From contig CAWJTV010000042.1 of assembly GCA_963845755.1 (NCBI GenBank), forward strand, positions 342,997 through 406,996: 64,000 bases of DNA, in the 5' to 3' direction. Positions 42,586-64,000 of the stretch are shown here, piece by piece. The position numbers were made by a program, and so were the translations under genes. The first letter of the stretch is position 1. Every line of letters begins with the position of its first letter. The notes beneath the pieces were generated by a model that worked only from the letters and a program-made list of their open reading frames with translations, was not told where the DNA came from and searched no databases. This stretch comes from an uncultured Planctomycetota bacterium (lineage in GTDB: Bacteria > Planctomycetota > Planctomycetia > Isosphaerales > Isosphaeraceae).

Positions 42586-42812
42586 GAATGGCACGAGCTT
42601 AGGCGCAAATCGCTATTGAGATTGGTCTTGCGAACACAGCCTTTTCCTGCTCCTTGCGCTTGATTCTCGAGGTCTCCAGGTGGACCCCTACGTTTCCCGT
42701 CTAGTCTACTAATGCTCATGCGAACAAATTACTGTAATGCCCGCGGGCAATTCGCGTCATGAGGACACAAATCATTTTTCAAAAACAACTTACGCCTAAG
42801 CCGGTGCCATTC
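42586..42812. mobile_element. IS4-type MITE (227 bp), imperfect terminal IRs
   Basis: gaatggcacgagcttaggcgcaa ... ttacgcctaagccggtgccattc; flanks are hairpin arms gcttcggtc / gaccgaag. Confidence 0.75.
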
Positions 42813-42926: not shown

Positions 42927-45874
42927 CTAGTGCTTTGTCACAGCTTAATCTTAGGGTAGACCGACGTGAGTTTACCGCGAGCATCGTCGATCTTCATTTG
43001 CCAATCCACGCCGCGCTGGGTGCTGTTGACATCGGATGACCAAGCGCCGGTCTCCGCTCGCAGGGTGGGAACATCGCCGAAGCGGCGACCGGACACGCAC
43101 TGGCGTGTCAGGGAGCTCAGCTCATTCTCGGCGATGTTCAGCCAGCTACCGTGCTTGGGCGTGTAACAGAACTCGATGCGGCAGACCAACTGGCGCGCCC
43201 GGGCGGGTGCAAAACTCTCGTAGAATGCGCCTTTGGTGTGCGTGTTCAAGTTGTCGCACACGACGATCACGTGCTCGGCGTCGGCGTAACGGCCTTCCAT
43301 CAGTCGAGCCATCTCGATCGCCCAGTCCACCTTGGTTTTCGTCTCGCGAACGGCCACCTCGCGCCAACCCGCCAGTGGTTCGGTGAACATGAAGATGTTC
43401 GCTGTCCCGCGCGCTCGTACTCATAGTCAACGCGCCGGCCGTGTCGGCGGGTGGCGGGGATGGGCACGCGGGTCTCCTTCAGCAACTGCACCGGTTGCTC
43501 GTCCATGCCCAGCACCGGACGGGCGGGATTATAAGGTATCGCGTAGGTCTCCAGCACTTCCTCCATGTTGGCTACGAACTCGCCGTCGGCCTTGGGCGGG
43601 ATGACCCAGTACTCAAGCTTGCGGTTGGTCATGCCGTTTTTTTCTAGGCTGGCAAAGTTAGCTGGAGGCAGCGGTGCTCCAAGTCCTTGAGGTAGGCATC
43701 GGGATTGTGGCGGAACCGGCGTTGCTTCCGCCGCGATTCCCGCCGCGCCTCCAGTTCCGCGCGCAGTCCCTTCCAATCCTCAACATAGCCCGGGCTCAGC
43801 ACCAAGCCTTCGTCCGGCCGCAGCCGCGTCGCCAGCCCCGAGATCACCCGCGCCGAGCCCATCACCACCAGGCCCGGCGACCCCCGACGCCGACCGCTGG
43901 CCCGGCGCTCGTGGTAGCGATGACTGCCGAAGGTGTGCTCCAGGTCGTTATTCGTCCGCGGCAGATCCGACGACTCGTAGCAGGCAAACAAGCCCGGCCA
44001 GTAGCTCCGGGTCACCTTCACGAACTGCTTCAAACCCGCCCGCACCGTGGGCTCGTCTGTCGTCGCCACCGCCCGGCGCATTCGCGCCAGCAGTTGCACC
44101 AGCCGCCGCCGCACCTTCTTCGCCGGCAGCCCCTCCTCGTTCTTGAGGATCCGGGCAGCGCAGCTTGACCCATTGGTACGACTCGCGCACCGCCGGGAAC
44201 AGCGCGGCCGTCTCCTCCAGCCCGCGCCGCAGCAATTGCCTCAGCCGTTTCAAACCCCCGGGCAGGTCGCCCGCCTTGGCGACGACATCGTCCAAGTTGG
44301 CGGCAATCCGGCTCAATCGATCCTGCCGCTTCAGCCCGGAGGCCGAAAGCGGTGGCAGTCCGTCGTCGGTCAAGGCCCCGCGCACCGCGGCGCAGTAGTC
44401 CCGCACCACCTCCGCCTCCGCGTCCTCCGCGTCGTCCTCCAGCTCCTTCTCCGCCTGCGCGCTCGATCTTCCGGATGCCCCGCACCCGCTTCTTCAACTC
44501 CTTCTTGGCGTGGCGATCCGCCTCGTAGATCGGCTTGGCCGCCTCGCGGAGGTAGTGGAAATGGCAGAGCTGATGGGGGACACCTTTGAGGGCGATAGCC
44601 ACGGCGTTGCGGATGCTCTCCTGACCGTCGGAGACCACGCCGGTGATCGGCACCGGCAGGACCTTCCGCACCTGGTCGATCAGGCCGGCCAGGTCCTGGG
44701 CCGTGGACGACAGCAGGCTCTTGGCCAGGAGGATCTCGCCGGAGAGGCAGTCGCGCAGCACCCAGAGGACCTCGTGGCCGACATCCGGCTGCAGGCCGTC
44801 GATGGCCAGGATGACGCGGCCCTGCGGGCGCAACAGCGGACCGAGTCGCTGGGGATCGGCCGTGGCCAGGGACCGCAGCTCGTCGTAGCGGTCCAACAGG
44901 TTGGTGACGGTGCGTTCGGCCAGGATGAGCCCGCGGTGCGTGAGCTCGCGGTGGATCTCGGGGATGCTGCGGTGCTCGGCATAGCGGAGCCGGCCCACCA
45001 GGGCCATGACGTCGAGGCCGAACTCGTGATAGGGCAAGGCGAAGTGGGGCTCAGCCTCAGGGCGGTAGGGTCTCAGGAAGCGGGAGCAGGCGGGATTGGG
45101 GCAGCGTCGGATCGTCAGGGTCAGCCGGAAGACGCCGTCGAGGGTGCTGATGGTGCGAAAGTTGTTGTAGTCGGCACCGGTCCGGTGCTGGCACTCGGGG
45201 CAGTTCAAGAGGACCGGAGTGAGGGTTAAGGCGCGATCGGGTTGCGGTCGAGGTCGTCGTTTGTGGTTTGCGCATGGAAAGCCTCCTCTGCTCTGTTCTG
45301 TTCTTACGTCCATTATACCAAGCCGAGGGGCTTCCCAGCTACTTTTGCTATCCTAGTTTTTTTTAGCGTACGCCGCACGGTTTCGTAACTCACGGACTCG
45401 ACGATCCCCAACTCCACGACCTTGCGCGCGAGCAGGCGCAATGTCCAGTTGGCATAGCCCGGGGGAGGCGATCCCAGTCGCGTGGCAATGATCCGAGCTT
45501 CCTGCTCCCCGCTGAGCAACTTCTCGACCGGTGGTGTCTCACGCTTACTGCGGTCCAGCGCTTCGCCAAAGCCTCGCTCCACGAGACGCTGACGGATGTT
45601 CTCCACGCTCTTGGTTCGGCATCCGAATGCCTCGGCGATCCGCTGGTCGGTCCAGTTTGGGCCGTCCGCGTCCGCCTTGAGCAAGATCTGGGCACGCCGT
45701 ACCTTCTCGCTTGTCCCCTTCAACTTCTTGATCACGGCCGCCAACTCGGTCCGTTCCTGATCCGTCAGCCGAACGATATACTTTTTGTTCACGGGGAACC
45801 TCCTTTGTCCCCGACATCATCTTCTTTTTGGGGAAAGCCCCCAACCCTAACTTTTAGCTGTGACAGAGCACTAG
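42927..45874 (-). mobile_element. IS630-family element (orfA 45792-45357, orfB 43643-42938), interrupted by a nested IS
   Basis: IRs ctagtgctttgtcacagcttaatcttagggt / accctaacttttagctgtgacagagcactag with TA ends; HTH orfA; DEQP, DNLNTH, PKHGSWLNIAE DDE motifs. Confidence 0.92.
43644..45356 (-). mobile_element. Mutator-like (IS256/MULE superfamily, ISNCY-type) IS nested in IS630
   Basis: IRs ctaggatagcaaaagt / ctaggctggcaaagt; flanked by T7 and T8 tracts; transposase with CxxC Zn fingers, AIDG, SDGQ, CHFH, RTNNDLE. Confidence 0.85.
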
Positions 45875-46335
45875 CACACCTGGTGATTGACGACGGCCCG
45901 GAGCACGACCTGGTGTGTCGCCGGCCGGCCCGCTGGATTTTTTCATCGTTTCTTCGCGCGATCCACCTCATGGCCTTGCTGTGTGACTCCGTCCCAGCCT
46001 ATCCTGGTTGCCTCGGTGAGGGTCGTACTATAGGCCTGGCGGTGTCTCGCCCGAGCCCCCTCGCCTCGCCATCGAGGACGACCGTGGACGAGTCAATCCG
46101 AAGATCCGGCCGCCTGGTGCGGGGCGTCGCCGCAACCCTACTGCCGATGCACCCGGCCGAACGACGTCCCTTCATCAGACCGCTCATCGCGCTCATCGAA
46201 CGCATCGTGGACGGCGACACCGATTCGATGGAGGCGGCGACCCGGGCGGTGGCCGAGACATCCACATCGAATGCCGCCCGGTGATAGACTATTCGAGGGC
46301 GTACTCGGTCGTCTTTTGCTCCCTCTGCCGGTAAC

Positions 46336-50524: not shown

Positions 50525-51286
50525 CTACTTGCCGATCACCGAGAGGGCTTTCTGGAGCGGCGCGGGTGAGATTTGGACCGCACCTTCGATTGGGCGGTTC
50601 ATCTCCAGGATCAGGTAGATTGCGCCAGCCATCGACACCGCACATACAAACAAGCAGCTCCACGTCGTCCGGTTGCGCGGGGCGAGTAAGCCGAGGCTGG
50701 CGAACAGCACCGTGAGCCAGAAGATCAACATCCCGAGGAAGACCGTTGGCAGTGTGGTCTGAGACTGCTCGATCATCAGCCAGCGCGAATGCACCAGCTC
50801 GCTGCAGGTCTGGAGGGAGTGCGACCGAATGGCGCGAACTGCGCCTCGTCCGGGGGCACGAGCTGCTCGATCATGTCCAGGACGTCATCCATGCCTGCCC
50901 CGTGCTCGACCGCAGCGAGGCTCGGCTTCAGACCCCGTCCGGTTGGCCACAGGCGCTCAATGCTGGTCGCGATCTCCTCACGCATCCGCTCTCGGATCGC
51001 CCTGGTCTCCGGCCCGTAACGCACGAGCGCGGTCGAGTAGGATGATCTTCGCGCCGATCTGGGTCACCCCGGAATTCGCCTGGTCGAACGACGATTTGGA
51101 CGAGCTGACCAGCAGGCCGATGACCAGCGCGACGAGTGTCGCGATCATGCCGGAGGCAGCCTTGACGACGTCCTTTGAATCGTCGCGAAGGTGGTGATCG
51201 GGCAGTCGGCTCCGAATTAGCGAACCGAGGACCGTGCCGGCGCACAGGCACGCCAGGGTGATCAGAGCAGTGAGCAGCGAATCCAT
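50525..51286 (-). CDS. DUF4239 / bestrophin-like membrane protein (frameshifted)
   Basis: LPDHHL..DSKDVVK...IATLVALVIGLLVSSSKSSFD; LIFWLTVLFASLGLLAPRN; LILEMNRP. Confidence 0.8.
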
Positions 51287-51685
51287 CAATCTCGTCTCCG
51301 GGTCGAGGACGGCGAGGCGGGGACCGGACCCCATCCCGGCCGGGCCTCGTCTGGGTAATGACTCCTCTTTACTTATGGCAAAGCCGGCGCTCAGGCTATC
51401 GTCCAACGCGACAACCATCCTCCCCGGGAAAGAGACCAGAGGTCGATATTCATTCATCAAGAACCGAAAAGAGGGCCGGGGCCCTGGGATTTCGCCGCCC
51501 CAACTGGTGCTCGCTTGGCCATACACAGGGGACGTGCAAATACGGGACGAGGAAGGCCGTTGTCGGAGAAGTCGATCAGAGTGGACTCCACGCGTTCGTC
51601 CCCGAGGTCCTGCACCCGGGACGAACTGCTGGAGGTCGCCGAGGACGGGAGCACGAGCCGCCGTTGCCCGAGACGAGGGTGAAGT

Positions 51686-51858
51686 CTAATTCGCGAACGT
51701 CTTTCGGCCCCTTGACGCTGGGTCTCACGTCGCTTCATCCGCATGCTGTTGTCCCCTCGATCCTTTCGGTCGAAGGTCAGCGGAACGTTTTACCCGCCGT
51801 CTTCCAGCGGGGTCGGGGCATTCCCGACAGGACCGGACCAACCTTTGCCACGGCGCAC
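51686..51858 (-). ncRNA. Group II intron 5' fragment (about 170 nt of domain I), copy 3
   Basis: Starts GTGCGCCGTGGCAAAGG on the minus strand; aligns with 57919-58062 and continues into 56977-57003. Confidence 0.8.
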
Positions 51859-51965
51859 CCATTCGTCGATCAGACCGAAGCGCGCGAGCAGGCTGCGGAT
51901 CAGGACATTTCTGGAGCACCCTCATTATGAACGCCTGGCCACAAGGCCGAGTCAGAGTGAGGTGC

Positions 51966-52495
51966 TTACGATCGTTTGCGCTTCGTCGACGTGCGGGCTT
52001 GAGGAACGGCCTCGGTCTTGCTCGGCTTCCCTCTTCCTGCCCCCGCCGCCGCACGGGCGGATTCCATGTATTCAATGTACTTCCGTGCCGGCACCCGGCG
52101 GATCGCCTCGCCGACCACATCGAGCGCCAGGTCGTCGAGTTTCTTGAACCGCACACACGACTTGCCCATGTTCAGCTTCTTTCCAGCCTTTGCCCACGCA
52201 TCTTCAAACCAGGACCGAAGCGCCTCATGGCCGTAGATGCACATGAGGTACACCGACATGTACCCCTTCTGAGACGCAAGGGCGGCGAATGGCAAGGGCT
52301 GTTTCGGGTCGCAGTGATACCCCGCCGGATACACCCGGTGCGGGACGTAGTATCCGATCATCCCGTACTGAACCCCTCTTCATACCCCTCGTCCAGATTG
52401 TCCAGAATCACCTTCCGCACCACCTCGATCGCCCTCCGCCGATCCTCCGGCAACGTCGCCAGGTACGCCTCCACAGTCGTCGCTGCACTTTTCAT
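51966..52495 (-). CDS. DUF1801 (YdhG-like) protein (frameshifted)
   Basis: ATTVEAYLATLPEDRR...MIGYYVPH...LASQKGYMSVYL...MGKSCVRFKKLDDL. Confidence 0.85.
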
Positions 52496-52745
52496 CGAGG
52501 TACTCCGCTTTGTACGTGGGTAGTCGGGACAGCGCTTTGTCCGTTTGTGAAGCCCGAAGTGGCCATGCGCGGCTCTCGGTCGCGAGATCCGCTCGCCGCA
52601 TTGTGGCCAACTCACGGCATTGACCATCGTAGCACGTTGGGACGGTCCGGATGTATCCGGCGTCACCTATGTCGCTTTGCAGCCGGATCGACCACGGACG
52701 CGGTGCCATGGAGAGGCTGCCTTGCGCGCTCCGGTCCGACGACAC

Positions 52746-52974
52746 GAATGGCACTAGCTTAAGCGTAACTCATTTTCAGAAAACGGGTTGCGGTTCGATG
52801 TTTTTCCCATCAATAGTACTCAGGAGGATATGAGGCTGGGTCCATGTGGCTTGATTTGAGGCTAAACTCTCTATCAATATTACAATCAAATATTTACAAT
52901 CGTTGAAGATCTGTCTGGCGAGCCACGCTTAAACTCCAATGGCATAAGCTGTTACGCTTAAGCTAGTGCCATTC
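52746..52974. mobile_element. IS4-type MITE (229 bp) with perfect 24-bp IRs and 12-bp target duplication
   Basis: GAATGGCACTAGCTTAAGCGTAAC ... GTTACGCTTAAGCTAGTGCCATTC; gtccgacgacac at 52734-52745 and 52975-52986. Confidence 0.9.
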
Positions 52975-53064
52975 GTCCGACGACACCGAAGCGCCAACGC
53001 CTGTGTCTGTTTACTGAAGAAGTTCGGCGAGCCGCGCGACCCCACCGAAGCTCCGGCAGGAGCG

Positions 53065-56244: not shown

Positions 56245-56742
56245 TCATTTGTTCAATATATATATGTCATCGTCACTGAGGCCCACCACCCGCCGCCCTT
56301 CGGCTTCCAGGCGGTCATGCGGCAGATTCACGACCGACCGAACGAATTCCGGCTTGAGCATGAACGTCAGCACACGGCCGGATTTTTCATCGCGGATCAC
56401 CGTCTTCATCGCTTCCGCCGTCGCTTCCTCGACGCGGAGGTTGAGCTTGCCCGGACTGGCCCCAGTCGCCGCCTGGACGCCATCGGCGATGCAGGAATAC
56501 TGCACCTGGGCCGGACAGCGATGGACGACCTGGAGCGTCAAGGCGTGCCTCGGCAAACCCAGCTCCTTCAACGCCCGCTCGCCCATGCGATAGCCGGCCA
56601 CCGCCCATGGGCCGGCCGCGCCGTGAATCTCTCGGACTCGGGCCAACCGCTCCGCCACCGCCGAGTCATCGCCGGCCCAGCCGGAACCGGCCAGTACGCT
56701 CGAAGCAAGCACCATCAACGCCAAGCCGCATCGCCGCACCAT
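56245..56742 (-). CDS. FmdE-family protein with signal peptide
   Basis: IHGAAGPWAVAGYRMG, QYSCIADGVQAATGASPGKLNL; GGAGGT RBS. Confidence 0.8.
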   Translation of the reverse strand: MVRRCGLALMVLASSVLAGSGWAGDDSAVAERLARVREIHGAAGPWAVAGYRMGERALKELGLPRHALTLQVVHRCPAQVQYSCIADGVQAATGASPGKLNLRVEEATAEAMKTVIRDEKSGRVLTFMLKPEFVRSVVNLPHDRLEAEGRRVVGLSDDDIYILNK

Positions 56743-56756
56743 GGGATGCCACCTCC

Positions 56757-58062
56757 TTAGGCGATCCCATGGTTGTCGGCCAGGTCCGGTCCACGTTTAG
56801 GGCCTTCGTTCATCCCTTGCCTCTGCTCACAGCAGGGTGTGTCCTGCCGGAAGATCACGGGGGCGAATGGCCTACCCCCGTGAGACAGGAATCCGGGTTT
56901 CACCGTCATTCCCGACGGTGATCGAACATCCCCCTGGGACTCAAGTTCCAGCAATCCAGCCTTAACCCTGCGTGACCTAACTCGCGACCGACTCTCGGCC
57001 CTAAGAGCGCTCGGAAAAAATGAATCCACTGGCACGCTGTCTGCTCTTGAGTCCTTCGGAGAGTGATCTCCCGAACCGAAGGAGGACCACCATGAAACCC
57101 CTTGTCTCCGATGCGCTGTGGAAGCGCCTGGAGCCCTTGCTGCCACCCCCGCCTCCGCGCCGCTTCCGCTTCCCGGGACGCAAACCCCTGGACTACCGCA
57201 AGATCCTCACCGGCATCTTGTTCGTGCTCAAGACCGGCATCGCCTGGGACGACTTGCCCGCCGACCTCGGCTGCGGCTGCGGCAAGACCTGCCGGTCCTA
57301 CCTGCAGGCGTGGCAGCAGGCCGGTGTCTGGCGCCAGTTGCACGCCGTCTTGCTGGCCGAGCTCAACGGCGCTGACGCGATCGACTGGGAGCGGGCCGCT
57401 GATCGACGCCTCCTTCGCCAAGGCCCCGGAAGGGGGCGAGGATACCGGCCCGAATCCGACGGACCGGAGCAAATCCGGCAGCAAGCACCACGTGATGACC
57501 GACGCCCAAGGCGTGCCGCTGGCGGCGACGGTGACCGCCGCCAACGTCCCCGAGATCACCCAGGTCTTCACGACGCTCGACGACATGCCGCCGGTGGGCG
57601 GCAAGCCGGGGCCGAAGCGGCAGAAGCCCGACCGCTTGCAGGGGGATCGGGGCTACGACTCGGAACCGGTGCGGCAGGGTTTGCGCAGGCCGGGGGACCA
57701 CGCCGGTGCTGGCGGCCCGCAATACGGAGCACGGCAGCGGTTTGGGCAAGTCCCGCTGGTACGTAGAGCGGACCATCGCGTGGCTGCACTCCTTCGGCCG
57801 GCTGCGCCGCCGTTTGGATCGGCTCACCGAGATTCAAGACGCGTTCCTCAAGTTAGCATGTTCCTTGATCTGTTTGAGGCTCCTGGGCCAGTGAACTCAT
57901 TTTTTCCGAGCATTGCTAGAGCATGGGCCTCACGTCGCTTCATCCGCATGCTGTTGTCCTCTCAATCCTTTCGGACGAAGGTCAGCGGATCGTTTGACCC
58001 GCCTTCTTCCAGCGGGGTCGGGCACTCCCGGCAAGACCAGACAAACCTTTGCCACGGCGCAC
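56757..58062 (-). ncRNA. Group II intron 5' fragment (about 390 nt, DI to about DII), copy 2, interrupted by IS5
   Basis: Starts GTGCG at 58062; 56757-56956 aligns with 62101-62301 of the RT-bearing intron; EBS1 loop at 56864-56871, EBS2 at 56920-56925. Confidence 0.85.
57004..57915 (+). mobile_element. IS5-family element; transposase 57092-57894 (frameshifted)
   Basis: IRs gctcggaaaaaatga.t.cactggc at both ends, CTA(A/G) flanks; GILFVLKTGIAW, IDAS, GDRGYDS, RWYVERTIAWL. Confidence 0.92.
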
Positions 58063-58208
58063 GCATTCGTCGATCCGACCGACACGCGCGACCAAGTGGC
58101 CTGTCGAAGACTCGCTCGCCGCAAGCGCTAAGGTCCGGGTTTGACCGAGTTCTGCCTGCGGGCCAAGGCTTTCTCGGTAATCCAGCGGTGCCGCCATGTC
58201 CACCGCGC

Positions 58209-59054: not shown

Positions 59055-59615
59055 CACGGCCTCAGTCTGGTGCGTTTTTCGGGGGGTCGAGAGACGCCGT
59101 GGCTTCGCCTGCGAGCAGTTCGCCAGCCAGCCAAAACGCATTGTCTTGTGCAGCGGGAGCGGCTGTCAAGAAGATTGCAGCGCCGATCGTGGCATGTCTT
59201 GAGCGCCGATCGCACTCTCGTCCGAGGCGGATAAATTGACGGAAGTCAGGGTGGGTCCGGCGGCGATTCTCCCTGCGGCCTATCGTCAGGGCGGTTCGTC
59301 CAGGAACAACGAGCCAGACCAGGCTCGCGCCGACGACAACAGCAGCGACCAGGGACGGCTCGGCGCCGTGCGACAGGGGCCGATCGGCACCGCGAGCCCG
59401 ACCACCTTTTTCCAGGTCATCAGCGCTCTCTCACAAGACCCGGCGGGACAGGGAACTCGACCGCTTGCGCGTCCTTCGATGGCCACGCACGCGGCTCTTT
59501 TGAGCGCTGGAACGCGCCCTCACCAGACAGAGCAAGCCCGCCCAATCGGCTGCGCGTGTCGGCCTGCCAGACCGGTACGCGTTCACACCTCGGTCAACAA
59601 TTGTCCGAGATTATC

Positions 59616-59920
59616 ACTCGTTCCCACTCTCCGCGAGGGAATGCCGTCTGCGACGCTCCGCGTCGTCTTGGTCTTTGATTTCCAGCGACCCGTCGGTTGT
59701 CATCGAAACCCAGGACTCCCTCTCGGCAGGGTTGCGGGCGCCGGAGAATCTCCCAGGGGTCGGATCGAAGAGGAGTCCCGCTCCACCGGGTTCTTGGGAG
59801 ATGTCGCTCAACTTCTGGCTCATCATCGCGTCGGTCTCAAGGATTCTCGAAGGTCTGACTTCGAAGATGACAACGCCGAGCGTCGCAGACGGCATTCCCT
59901 CGCGGAGAGTGGGAAGGAGT
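59616..59920. repeat. REP/REPIN-like pair of about 52-bp inverted repeats
   Basis: actcgttcccactctccgcgagggaatgccgtctgcgacgctccgcgtcgtc pairs with gacaacgccgagcgtcgcagacggcattccctcgcggagagtgggaaggagt. Confidence 0.8.
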
Positions 59921-60056
59921 CATCGCGTTCCGACGGGGTAATCGGCGGTCCCGCTGCCGAATGTCGCATGGGCTAGCATTGATCTTGCCTGATGCCTAAA
60001 AAACAGGCGTCTTACAACTGTCGACCAGGGTGTGAACCGGTACGTCGAAGCTAGTG

Positions 60057-60146
60057 ATGAGGTAGGCGGCCAGCCCCTTGATCTCAAGGGAATCCAACCG
60101 CCCCCTCCCGAACCGGACAGGCACGTTTTCGTGCATCCGGCTCTCC
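60057..60146 (-). ncRNA. Group II intron domains V and VI
   Basis: AGC catalytic triad hairpin and a DVI stem with the branch-point A near the terminal AT. Confidence 0.9.
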
Positions 60147-60168
60147 AGACACAGGATCTACATTTGTG

Positions 60169-62016
60169 TCACGGTCCAACCCGGTATGCCAGGTCCGCCA
60201 GTCGGAGGCCATCATATTCTCCTCGGTGGATCTTACGGTGGCACTCTCGGCAGACGGGCACTTGCTTCCGGTTCTGGAGTCGCATCAGCCAGGCAAACCC
60301 ACCGACAGGTTTGCCCTCCATCTTTCGGATGTGACGGACGTGGTGCATCTGCACCCCGACCGTTGTTTCGCAGATGATGCATGGGTGGTCCAGGCGGGAC
60401 CTTGTCCGGAATCGGACGTGCATCTCCAGTGGGTCGGTTTGATCTCTTCCCGTTAGAAATGCCGTGGGGTTCCGGGTCCAGTCGGAGTTGGCTTTGAAGA
60501 AGGTGTTCCGTTCCTTCCCCTCGCCGTCTTTCCAGTTGAATTGCAGAGTGCGTCCGTGTTCGCAGAGGAGCTGCTTAACGGGCTTCTGCAACTTGTGGGC
60601 TAAGGTCTTCGCAAGTGACAAATGCAGGATGTACTGGATACGGCTCATGGAGGCGAAGTTGTCAGCAAACCTGTAGTAGTTCAACAGCCCCCAATTGGTG
60701 CTGTTGAACAGTTCGATGATGTGCTTCACCTCCAGGCAGACCCACGCTGTCTTGGATCGGGCGATGCCCTCACCGTCACAGAAGCCCTTCTGGTGAAGAC
60801 GCTTGACCAGTTTCCTGATCGGCGCTCGCATCAGCGGGCTCCACCCCGTACACCGGCGCCGGTAGTGCCGCCGTTGGTTGTGGCAGTGGGTAACCTTGGG
60901 CTGTGGGTTGACGGCCCCCACCTGAAGCCGCGTCCCGAGAAAGAAGGCCTCCTCGGTCTTGGCGTGAGTGACGACCGTCTTTTCCTGGCTGAGTTGCAGT
61001 TTCAGCCTGTCCCATAGGAACGCCTGAATCTCGTCCTTGATCTGTTCGGCCAGGGACCTCGGCCCCGTGACGCCGACGATCCAATCGTCTGCATATCTGA
61101 TGTATTTGACTCTGACGAAGCCAGGGTCAAACGTGTCCATCGACGGGAGAGATCGCATCTGTTTCGTCAAAGCGCGAATCTCCGGCGTCATGATCCCACC
61201 TGACCGTTTCAACGCTCGCTGCCTGCGATAGTTGATCCGGTGATACTCGGGGCTGTCCTTCCGCTTGCTGCCCTTCTCGTACTTCTGCTGTAGTCCCTCG
61301 ACGAAGAGGTCGAGTTCGTGCAGGTAGATGTTGGCGAGGATAGGGCTGGCCACGCTCCCCTGCGGGGTCCCGATAAACGAGGCCCCCGGTTCCTTCCTCC
61401 ATAGGTAGCCTGCCCGGAGTGCTTTCCAGATCAGGCCGATGAAGCGTTCGTCCGAGATCCTCTTCCGGATCAGGGAAACCAGGACGTGGTGATCGATCTC
61501 GTCGAAGCAGGATTTTATATCCCCTTCGATGATCCACGTCACACCAGACCACTTGGTCCTGAACTCATGCAGGGCCGTGTGAGTCCCTCGACCAGGCCGA
61601 AAACCATGGCTACAGTCGCTAAAGGTAGGCCCTTTCGGACTGTCGTAGATCGCTTCGAGGATCACATGGATGACCTCTTGGACGATCTTGTCCCTTGGGG
61701 ATGAGATGCCGAGAGGCCGCATCTTGCCATTTGCCTTGGGAATGTATTCCCGCCGCGAAGGCTTGAATTGGAAACCCTCGTCTCGCAGGGTCGCCACGAT
61801 GTCGTCGATGGCATCCATGGAGAACCCATCGAGAGTCATCCCGTCGGTGCCAGGAGTCAAGTTCCCGGGAGCGGATTTGATTTTCTCATACGCGACGATG
61901 TAGAGATCCGTCTTGTAGAGGAGTCGATACAGATCCGCGTTGACCCAGTTGAGGTCCGTGTTGCACTTCCGCAGTGCTTCAAGCCTGAGTAGGGCTGAAT
62001 GACTCATCCGAGTCAC
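60169..62016 (-). CDS. ltrA: Intron-encoded RT / maturase / HNH endonuclease (LtrA-like), intact
   Basis: TPGTDG, IPKANGKMRPLGI, SHGFRPGRG, EGDIKSCFD, GTPQGS, YIRYADD, YYRFADN, CIIC..HHVRH..CRECHRKIH. Confidence 0.95.
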   Translation of the reverse strand: MTRMSHSALLRLEALRKCNTDLNWVNADLYRLLYKTDLYIVAYEKIKSAPGNLTPGTDGMTLDGFSMDAIDDIVATLRDEGFQFKPSRREYIPKANGKMRPLGISSPRDKIVQEVIHVILEAIYDSPKGPTFSDCSHGFRPGRGTHTALHEFRTKWSGVTWIIEGDIKSCFDEIDHHVLVSLIRKRISDERFIGLIWKALRAGYLWRKEPGASFIGTPQGSVASPILANIYLHELDLFVEGLQQKYEKGSKRKDSPEYHRINYRRQRALKRSGGIMTPEIRALTKQMRSLPSMDTFDPGFVRVKYIRYADDWIVGVTGPRSLAEQIKDEIQAFLWDRLKLQLSQEKTVVTHAKTEEAFFLGTRLQVGAVNPQPKVTHCHNQRRHYRRRCTGWSPLMRAPIRKLVKRLHQKGFCDGEGIARSKTAWVCLEVKHIIELFNSTNWGLLNYYRFADNFASMSRIQYILHLSLAKTLAHKLQKPVKQLLCEHGRTLQFNWKDGEGKERNTFFKANSDWTRNPTAFLTGRDQTDPLEMHVRFRTRSRLDHPCIICETTVGVQMHHVRHIRKMEGKPVGGFAWLMRLQNRKQVPVCRECHRKIHRGEYDGLRLADLAYRVGP

Positions 62017-62301
62017 CCCTTTCTTGGTGAAGCCCTGTGTCCTGTCCCCCTTGGGCCGATGCCTACTACGGGGACTCTGTCGCCTTGGGCATTGCTGCCG
62101 TTAGGCGATCCCGTGGTTGTCGGTCAGGTCCGGTCCACGTTGAGGGCCTCCGTTCATCCCTTGCCCCTGCTCATTGCAGGGTGTGTCCTGCCGGAAGATC
62201 ACGGAGGTGAATGGCATGCCCCCGTGAGACAGGAATCCGGGTTTCAGCGTCATTCCCGGCGGTGATCGGTCACACCTACTGGGACTGGAGTTCAAGCAAT
62301 C

Positions 62302-63999
62302 GGGTGCAATCGCGCCGATGCCAGCGATTATGCGGCATTTGAGGTCCTTCCCTTCGCTGTAGTCCCTTGAGTCCGCATCACGAGTGTCGCCTTCGATCCC
62401 AGGTAGGATTGATACACCTCGCTCCAGACCCCGCTCAAGTGGATCACCCGTAGGTTGACGATCCACTGACCACTCTCGACTTTCCAGCTCATCCCCGACT
62501 GCTTCAGCCGCTGGGTGAACACCGTCTTGCACGCCGCCTCCGTCACCCCGCTGCCGATCGGCAAGTGATCCCGGCGATAGCGGACATAATCCAGCCAGCG
62601 CATTCGTTTTCGCAAGTAGGCGTAGGCACTGCGGTATTGCTCTCGCTTGGCTGCCGACGCGATGATCCGCCGCCGGCGCAGGGCCGCCGCCGAATGCAGG
62701 ACTCGGTAGATCCCCCGCGGCTTCTCCTTCAGCCACCGCCGCATCCGCCGCGCCCAACTCGCCCCCGCCCGCGCGTCGGAGAACAACGCCTCGGACAGCT
62801 TGGTGATGTATTCGCAGGCATGATAATAATCGATCACCCAGTGCCACTTCAGTCGTCAACCGAGGTGATGAGGATCGCTCATCCGCTTCAGCACCCGGCG
62901 ATAGTATCGGGTCTGGTGGTTGCCGCCATCGGTGATGTAGGCCAGCCGCGGCAGCGGTCCGGTCCAACCGCGAAACACCGCCTCGATCAGGGCCGTCAAT
63001 TGCCCCGACAAGACCTCCTGACCCGGCTCGGGCATCCGCCCCAGGTAGACCGTCCCCAGCCGTCGCCCCTTGCGGTCGTAGACCGAGACCGTCGCCGTGG
63101 CCCCCTCGCGGTAACAGGCCTGACCGCGGATCGGCAGCATCAGCCCGTCGCGCCCCGCGGCCAGCACCGGCCTGCGGGAGCCCGTGGACCGGTCTGCCCG
63201 TCCCAGCCAGGAGAGCAGTTGGGCGACTTGGGCCTCTTGACGGTGGACCTCCATCCCCGCCGCCACACCGGCGATCACCGCTCGCAAGGTCTCAGCCGAC
63301 CACTGCACCCCATGATCGTGGCGCAACGCCACCAGAACTGCGTCCTGAGAGGACATCACCGCCGCGTGGGTGGCCCGCTCGGCGAGGGCCGGCGTCGCCC
63401 GGCCGGACTCCAGACCGAGCTGGATCTCCAGCGGGAAGATCGAGGACTCGACGCCGTGGACGTCCTGGTACAACATCCGCCACAGCGTGATCGTGCCGAA
63501 GGTGGTGGCCACCGAGCGATTGGGGGTCTTGGAGCGGCGGCGATACCAGGTCCCGCCGGACTCGATCTGGGCGGGCATGTCCTTGCGGTCGTGAGGCTCG
63601 AGGTGGTTGAAGGTCCATTCGACGATGATCCGGCCGAGTTCGCGGAGCAACTCCTCCAATCGGGTCTCGAAGCGGTGGGCGGTTTGAGGCGTGGGGTCGG
63701 CCCGGCGGAAGTGGACGATGAGCCGCCCGAGTTCGGTGATCACCGGGACCAGGCGAGCGGTGAGCGGGAGCAAGGACGTGGCGAAATGCGTTGCTGTGAG
63801 GAGTCGGGAGCACGTAGCATGGTCCATCGAGGTGGCCTTTCCTGTTGCGAGGACAGAGCTTGTTACACACTGTCACTTCACAGGAGAGGCCCCTCGACTT
63901 TCAAGCGATCCTCTTCCCAAGGCGGCCGACTCAGGCCAAGTCAACACCGAAAACGTGGGAAAACAGGCTGAAATCCGCGGCACCAGCGCGATTGCACCC
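62302..63999 (-). mobile_element. ISKra4/ISLre2 (UPF0236)-like IS inserted in intron domain I; transposase 63827-62328 (frameshifted)
   Basis: IRs gggtgcaatcgcgc at 62302 and gcgcgattgcaccc ending at 63999; GRDG, ITDGG, IDYYHA, LPIGSGVTEAACK...RLKQSGMSW. Confidence 0.88.
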
Positions 64000-64000
64000 A

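Follow-up and report, generated by a model that had tools for sequence, protein, structure and literature searches.

A composite target site for a group IIA intron at the seams between an IS4-type element and a REP-like hairpin repeat in a planctomycete

What does a group II intron recognize when its copies lie at the boundary between two other mobile sequences? The question is raised by a 64-kb stretch of DNA from an uncultured planctomycete, referred to here as the window (G000:C42:342997-406996), which encodes Pfam families of planctomycete type and contains three pieces of one group II intron, all on the minus strand; G000 denotes the source assembly, a single incomplete one of 14.3 Mb and 87.9% completeness, from which all G000 counts are taken. 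A first-pass annotation had proposed that EBS2 reads the sequence into which an insertion sequence (IS) inserts, while EBS1 reads the IS end. The composite target, with EBS2 on the loop of a hairpin repeat and EBS1 and delta on the IS end, is real and well supported, although the GATCGA flank is not strictly required; the accompanying suggestion of EBS2 drift is weakly supported.

The intron starts with GTGCG, its domains V-VI (60057..60145, minus strand, in copy 1) match Rfam RF00029 with 62 bits, and its open reading frame (ORF; 60169..62016, minus strand, 614 aa), which combines reverse transcriptase (RT), maturase and HNH domains, matches PF00078 and PF01348, while TIGR04416 reaches 252 bits on it, below its cut-off of 300. 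The ORF also matches PF21368 and the intron ends in CAT, which agrees with an LtrA-type (ML) protein with a C-terminal HNH and with a YAY 3' end. LtrA is the nearest solved structure (best PDB match 5g2x_C, E=3.5e-96, residues 17-595), ahead by 65 orders of magnitude. The LtrA-type protein with HNH is accompanied by an EBS2 in a terminal loop and a delta G before EBS1, an arrangement that the accessible part of PMC8643678 describes as a hallmark of subgroup IIA. By the features that can be tested, the intron, which is known here from its sequence, is thus assigned to the LtrA-like group IIA introns. Subgroup IIC, whose members target hairpins, lack EBS2 and carry EBS3 instead of delta, was considered and rejected since both EBS2 and delta are present.

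Copy 1 (60057..62301, minus strand) comprises intron nt 194-2438, is 99.9% identical to full copies and ends in CCTCAT. Its 3' exon (60048..60056, minus strand; CACTAGCTT) continues an IS4-type end until another MITE breaks it, namely a GTAC-ended one with a REP-like palindrome pair (window 59575-60044), of which a further copy lies inside an IS4 MITE at C11:1000650. On the other side, an ISKra4-like element in domain I (62302..64000, minus strand) extends to the end of the contig. This element has an 8-bp duplication and contig C28 terminates in matching letters, because of which the last 199 nt of C28 are very probably the 5' part of copy 1. With the C28-C42 join so inferred, the earlier forecast of GATCG(G/A) in the 5' exon of copy 1 holds, as GATCGA. 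Copy 2 is a relic that differs from the C7 copy at 35 positions and stops at about nt 394 of 2438. It is split by an IS5-type element (57000..57911, plus strand, ends approximate), which has many near-identical copies in G000, into a 5' part (57924..58062, minus strand; nt 1-140, start GTGCG) and a 3' part (56757..57002, minus strand; nt 148-394) that ends before the ORF and is without domains V and VI; its cut end adjoins a ribosome site and the start of an FmdE-family gene (window 56742-56760). The third piece (51686..51858, minus strand; nt 1-173) has a duplicate at G000:C9:311655; window 51000-53000 and G000:C9:310500-311900 form a duplicated segment, with a MITE in a different hairpin in each.

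Other copies have been altered as well. Insertions of about 2.5 kb occur at different places in the intron ORF of two copies (G000:C11:965049-967500 and C36:46510-49020), and two ORF-less copies (G000:C6:61739 onward; L061:721 onward) are broken at the same spot of domain V by another intron, with relatives in L029 and L031, and so make up a twintron lineage whose target is the catalytic hairpin. At G000:C34:521696-531443, a 4.9-kb segment that carries another MITE is enclosed by two full copies in outward orientation, which form an inverted repeat of 2.4 kb; the segment is possibly invertible.

In full copies, the EBS2 region occupies nt 226-231, delta is G280 and EBS1 occupies nt 281-286; minimum-free-energy (MFE) folding of copy 1 and of the C7 copy places EBS2 and EBS1 in terminal loops, with the 5-mer of EBS2 ending an 8-nt loop, while the EBS2 hairpin is absent from the folds of the C6 copy and of copy 2, the relic. 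For copy 2, re-reading the window confirmed the letters of the candidate EBS2 at 56920-56925 (GATCGA on the plus strand, TCGATC on the minus strand). The site stands, its length of six bases does not: in copy 1 and in the C7 copy, C231 (window 56920) is folded into the closing pair of the hairpin stem, and EBS2 is therefore the 5-mer UCGAU (56921..56925, minus strand; nt 226-230 in C7 numbering), pairing with positions -8..-12, in agreement with the C7 copy, which has A at -13. EBS1 (CCAUUC) does not start at 56864, where the annotated range begins; it runs over 56865-56870 (minus strand), in the terminal loop of an Id3-type hairpin. The adjoining delta G (56871..56871, minus strand) would pair with the +1 C of the 3' exon by the rule given in the consulted part of PMC8643678; a G precedes CCAUUC at this position, and +1 is C in 7/7 3' exons in G000. 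On the exon side, IBS1 of copy 2 (58063..58068, minus strand; GAATGC, 5/6) is the first 6 nt of the IS4-type end, and the IBS2 region (58070..58075, minus strand; GATCGA, with ATCGA at -12..-8) is the loop of the target hairpin. The 5' exon of the third piece (51859..51871, minus strand) is built in the same way, with GATCGA (51866-51871), C and GAATGG (51859-51864), so that GATCGA occupies -13..-8 in both 5' exons of the window, as had been claimed. In copy 1, delta G (62215) and EBS1 CCAUUC (62209-62214) lie at 62209..62215 on the minus strand; the reported CCGATC at 62264-62269 was re-read and is correct, and EBS2 is CCGAU (62265..62269, minus strand; T226C), matching the ATCGA exon on C28 at 4/5 positions. 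By our own estimate, a 6-mer complement would occur anywhere in domain I by chance in ~9% of cases, and a 5/5 match at the 3' side of a terminal loop 55 nt before EBS1 in ~1 in 1000; occupancy data back the EBS2 assignment. According to the part of PMC8643678 available, the EBS2-IBS2 pairing is required for the invasion of double-stranded DNA.

The landmark of the target is a hairpin repeat, CTTCGGT-loop-ACCGAAG, with 61 filter matches in G000 (about 60 intact), whose loops are of 7 nt (NNGATCG, type 1) or 8 nt (GTCGTCGG, type 2). An IS4-family element and its MITEs enter this loop in G000 and duplicate 11-12 bp of it. The full element (C47:276274-278103; NF033592, 212.7 bits against a cut-off of 115) has a frame break in the assembly. 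Its family is IS4, and it likely belongs to subgroup IS4, for which the consulted part of PMC2266710 (Table 1) gives -AATR ends and 10-13 bp duplications; the GAATG ends and 11-12 bp duplications fit, and the transposase motif F(2)R(3)E(6)K and size of 1830 bp stand against Y(2)R(3)E(6)K and 1400-1650 bp in the subgroup. Every insertion gives one forward and one reversed flank, and a type-1 insertion therefore presents ATCGA-C-GAATGG at a single end. GATCGA was first described as external to the inverted repeat (IR) and part of the duplication, which is borne out by the copy at C34:529006, with an exact duplication at its far end. The window also contains two MITEs with both ends free: one at 52746..52974, in a type-2 hairpin with a 12-bp duplication (52734-52745 and 52975-52986), whose flank is CCGACGACAC as annotated, and one at 42586..42812, with hybrid flanks of reversed type 1 and reversed type 2. 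IS4-hairpin seams occur in 50/121 genomes of the order, against a single match of the reversed control pattern.

The hairpin itself is called REP-like only. A RAYT link was not found, with 0/10 Y1_Tnp matches in G000 beside a catalogued hairpin (by eye). An identity as an integron attC site, with AAC...GTT arms after single co-oriented genes near intI, is not supported either, as the integron of the genome (C3:161245) has ordinary attC-type sites of different sequence, and the genes that separate the hairpins vary in number and orientation. An integron integrase above cut-off, with adjacent cassettes, lies at G000:C3:161245-162186, and a group IIC-looking intron occurs at C3:155921, on C41 and four times on C47. 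Hairpin doublets, a type-1 followed by a type-2 and often 39 nt apart (e.g., C13:29389, C19:407548; L141-L153), are co-oriented within clusters, with the exact doublet found in 8/121 genomes, and could be recombination sites bounding cargo modules.

The preference of the intron among these seams was assessed by a census of G000, which holds 14 5' junctions, 13 of them independent after C9:311654, a duplicate of window 51859, is dropped. All 13 end in GAATGG or a one-base variant, after the hairpin arm, and the intron lies 6 nt inside IS4 or MITE ends at 13/13 5' and 7/7 3' junctions; 7/7 3' junctions start with CA(C/T)(T/G)AGC, continuing the IR. The free ends number 26, with the duplicate MITE of C2 and C47 counted once and C47:278103 added, while three fuzzy matches without a hairpin arm and an element of another family on C20 are left out. 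Ranked by best EBS2 pairing score, occupancy falls from 10/14 for perfect ends to 3/15 for intermediate and 0/10 for poor ones (Mann-Whitney p=5e-5). The claim that occupancy depends on the flank is upheld by the comparison of perfect with remaining ends (10/14 vs 3/25; Fisher p=3e-4), but a strict need for ATCGA is contradicted by the 3/13 junctions in G000 (C6, C25, C40) and 3/5 elsewhere that lack it. Forward type-1 flanks are occupied in 10/14 cases vs 1/8 for reversed type-1 flanks (p=0.024). Where both ends of an element are known, the intron is at the ATCGA end in 5/5 cases (p=0.03); three of the five are hybrids with unmatched duplications and an uncertain history, and the case is ambiguous in that the far-end duplication of C34a is of the reversed type-2 class, scored worst, and 3/8 intron-free elements are hybrids too. 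The C7 and C45 copies occupy opposite ends of the same MITE subfamily, each on the ATCGA side, and the choice therefore follows the flank rather than the end. Three intact ATCGA seams in G000, on the other hand, are empty. Over G000 and four further genomes taken together, flanks ending in CAC are found at 0/18 occupied vs 25/69 free ends, in a hand count in which kin are not independent. Weaker flanks can pair through a one-base shift that gives three Watson-Crick pairs plus wobbles.

Perfect IBS2-IBS1-delta' matches outside IS seams in G000 are occupied in 0/6 cases (p=0.003), and a second IS4-type family, with the inner sequence CATTAAG, in 0/14 (p=0.012), although about ten of its ends are GAATGG-C; RNA pairing alone is therefore insufficient. 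No intron insertion into a bare hairpin was found in G000.

We consider standard group IIA retrohoming into the repaired IS-hairpin seam to be the most plausible account, at a probability of roughly 80%, as far as sequence data can speak to it. The IS4-family element and its MITEs target the REP-like hairpin and duplicate 11-12 bp of its loop, so that the loop lands beside the IS end GAATGG-CAC and one end of a type-1 insertion reads ATCGA-C-GAATGG-C. The ribonucleoprotein would then pair EBS2 with ATCGA, EBS1 with GAATGG and delta with the +1 C, as complementarity, occupancy and covariation suggest, and, by analogy with Ll.LtrB, the intron would reverse splice 6 nt inside the end, with HNH serving the second strand. 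The protein would also read the left arm of the hairpin, where TCGGT (-20..-16) is conserved, or the inner IR, because perfect RNA matches elsewhere stay empty. Weaker flanks would be used at a lower rate by means of the one-base register shift and G-T wobble. The IS would in consequence act as a factory of new homing sites, and an intron 6 nt inside the IR should remove the tip of the binding site, probably immobilizing the entered end.

The same empty matches outside the seams, which imply that protein contacts matter, would also suit an origin of the flank bias in the intron protein or in strand context (replication, transcription) rather than in EBS2 pairing. We regard this as improbable, since the left arm is common to forward and reversed flanks, whose differences are confined to -15..-7, occupancy is graded by pairing score, and EBS2 and IBS2 change together in distant relatives; moreover, the HNH motif aligns with that of LtrA, from which fork orientation should matter little. 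It is somewhat less probable still that the intron reads the IS end only, and that the ATCGA bias reflects history, with few founders spread by duplication and recombination: the C9:311654 junction is indeed a plain duplicate, the hybrid elements attest to recombination and the bias is not significant in other genomes, but the occupied hairpins vary in loop and upstream sequence, the 3' exons come from both ends of several MITE subfamilies, and the GAATGG-C ends of the CATTAAG family are unused, though its inner IR differs.

The first-pass claim that the intron senses insertion junctions overstates what appears to be ordinary, passive IIA base pairing with a finished seam. An active sensing of fresh transposition, for instance, by entry into the gapped strand-transfer intermediate, would explain why IBS2 coincides with the 11-12 nt that are duplicated and transiently single-stranded. 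In the DDE mechanism, however, the gap lacks the strand that runs from the duplication into GAATGG, and the IBS2-IBS1 site would therefore exist only after repair; four of the 14 perfect seams stay free in G000. On these grounds, active sensing is very improbable, the least favored of the alternatives, and retrohoming into the repaired seam is retained.

The idea that EBS2 drifts so as to track target variants fares poorly within the lineage. EBS2 and exon are both known for 14 copies, nine of which, one chosen by the search pattern, pair 5/5 on ATCGA. Copy 1 and C34b carry the unmatched T226C, i.e., CCGAU on ATCGA with a C-A mismatch, and the copies in G046 and G109 have other flanks and show no compensating change in EBS2. 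Covariation is confined to the C6 copy (1/14), in which CCGAC faces GTCGG and both wobbles have become Watson-Crick pairs. A long-read error as the source of T226C is unlikely, C226 being the majority letter in run X12. In six near-identical long copies, two of the six variable sites fall in the 8-nt EBS2 loop and one beside its stem; the EBS2 loop thus varies more than the rest of the intron, but tracking is seen only once.

Between lineages, the covariation of EBS2 and IBS2 is clear by eye. Nearer relatives exist at 87-90% (P0001, P0002). Relatives at 59-65% protein identity use another target, with GGUCC on GGACA (4/5) or UGCCG on AGGCG (three pairs and a wobble), both judged by eye. On alignment A2, automatic counts of pairs are higher than in any of 500 shuffles; this is not counted as a test, as MAFFT misregisters the loops of four distant rows and the rows are related. 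These relatives insert after GCTCCCC-N9-CACTCTTCG (L016:2456-2480, L050:1477-1500, L048:815-838), which we take to resemble the end of a tRNA-integrating element; the clade may specialize in the ends of mobile elements.

Beyond G000, five copies in G046, G087, G109 and G032 lie at the same kind of IS4-hairpin seam (5/5), with ATCGA at 2/5 occupied vs 8/43 free ends (p=0.28; hand counts). In G109, an intron piece sits on a GTGTCGG end, and the far end, with ATCGA, is free. Metagenome runs X1 and X3 each hold a 5' junction with a GTGTCGG flank, and X3 also one with GATCGAC; the metagenome search pattern required GATCGA, and L061 is no test of flank bias. Searches for the intron 5' end gave no find in viral contigs, and there was no match in plasmids. 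The RNA sequencing runs retrieved contain less than 10% of the query words. Among the matches listed for RT relatives at 38-49% identity (18 loci in the family), the seam is not used where ends are readable.

In soil run X12, two EBS1 changes occur together (CGCUUC; depth 37.5 of 59.9, four contigs), and CGCUUC complements the hairpin's own right arm, GAAGCG. A loose-end consensus of three X12 contigs places a bare hairpin directly before the intron 5' end; the EBS1 changes and this junction lie on separate short contigs. A bare-hairpin pattern matched in 32 of 401 genomes of the phylum, and the 20 loci examined were without an intron match. It is possible, if somewhat doubtful, that the family is a re-aimed hairpin specialist, in which EBS2 would always read the loop and two EBS1 changes (CGCUUC vs CCAUUC) would switch between the arm GAAGCG-C and the IS4 end GAATGG-C. 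If so, the family has been caught in changing its host, a repeat, for the scar left in that repeat by a transposon, and the EBS2 steps UCGAU, CCGAU and CCGAC would now be moving toward type-2 hairpins while type-1 seams become occupied. A sister lineage specific to the bare hairpin is hinted at by one soil metagenome, and the genomes searched contain no copy of it.

An unrelated ORF-less group II intron at about 51580-52220 of G000:C19 has the arm of another palindrome on one side and C-GAATGGCAC on the other, a single base short of an IS4-type end, and may represent a second lineage that uses seams of this kind. Window 42932-45875 is occupied by an element that targets CTAG and has ends TGTCACAGC; its other two copies (G000:C34:545756, C9:310502) sit in the CTAG of the IR of the IS4-type MITE as a further parasite of that end.

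In known IS-targeting introns, the whole site lies inside the IS, with which the intron can travel. The site described here is assembled from two elements, and the spread of the intron is therefore rationed by the transposition of another element, whose end it would probably cripple on entry instead of riding on it. This three-level dependence of repeat, IS and intron has a built-in control in the two ends of each insertion, which makes both the share of EBS2 in target choice and a saturation-and-retargeting model testable in one genome. The literature searched, largely outside subscription journals, yielded no report of introns inserted where an IS meets a repeat; supplementary insertion-site tables could list such a case.

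Among known systems, Ll.LtrB of Lactococcus lactis targets a single host gene, that of a relaxase, and RmInt1, found in ISRm2011-2, is an IS-targeting group II intron. In contrast to that of Ll.LtrB, the present target spans the boundary of two elements that move separately, and every IS insertion creates a fresh one. The two introns are alike in RT, maturase and HNH, in EBS1, in an EBS2 terminal loop and in delta before EBS1, as far as the consulted parts of PMC3898094 and PMC8643678 describe them. Group IIC introns also use a hairpin repeat as a landmark; in the sections consulted of the same two sources, they have no EBS2 and recognize the hairpin by its structure, whereas here the loop would be read as sequence by EBS2 and the IS splits the hairpin. 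The IS resembles ISRm22 (PMC1525189) and subgroup IS4 (PMC2266710) in insertion at a palindrome axis, -AATR ends, 10-13 bp duplications and recombined hybrid flanks; the consulted parts of these papers describe no intron at those seams, and the hairpin here is an uncharacterized planctomycete repeat. Analogous to Thermosynechococcus TeI3/TeI4, for which the available part of PMC2882425 reports EBS divergence that opens new sites, ORF-less derivatives and twintrons, the family includes ORF-less copies and twintron-like insertions, but those are IIB1 introns with six EBS families, while EBS varies little here, and mostly without a corresponding flank. Similar to E.c.I4 and other IS-targeting introns, the intron homes to sites that an IS provides in many copies and that are only partly filled; E.c.I4 lies at set positions inside IS3-like transposase genes, with the whole site within the IS (both from the consulted part of PMC3522654), whereas the present intron lies in the terminal IR, mostly of MITEs, and half of its site is outside the IS.
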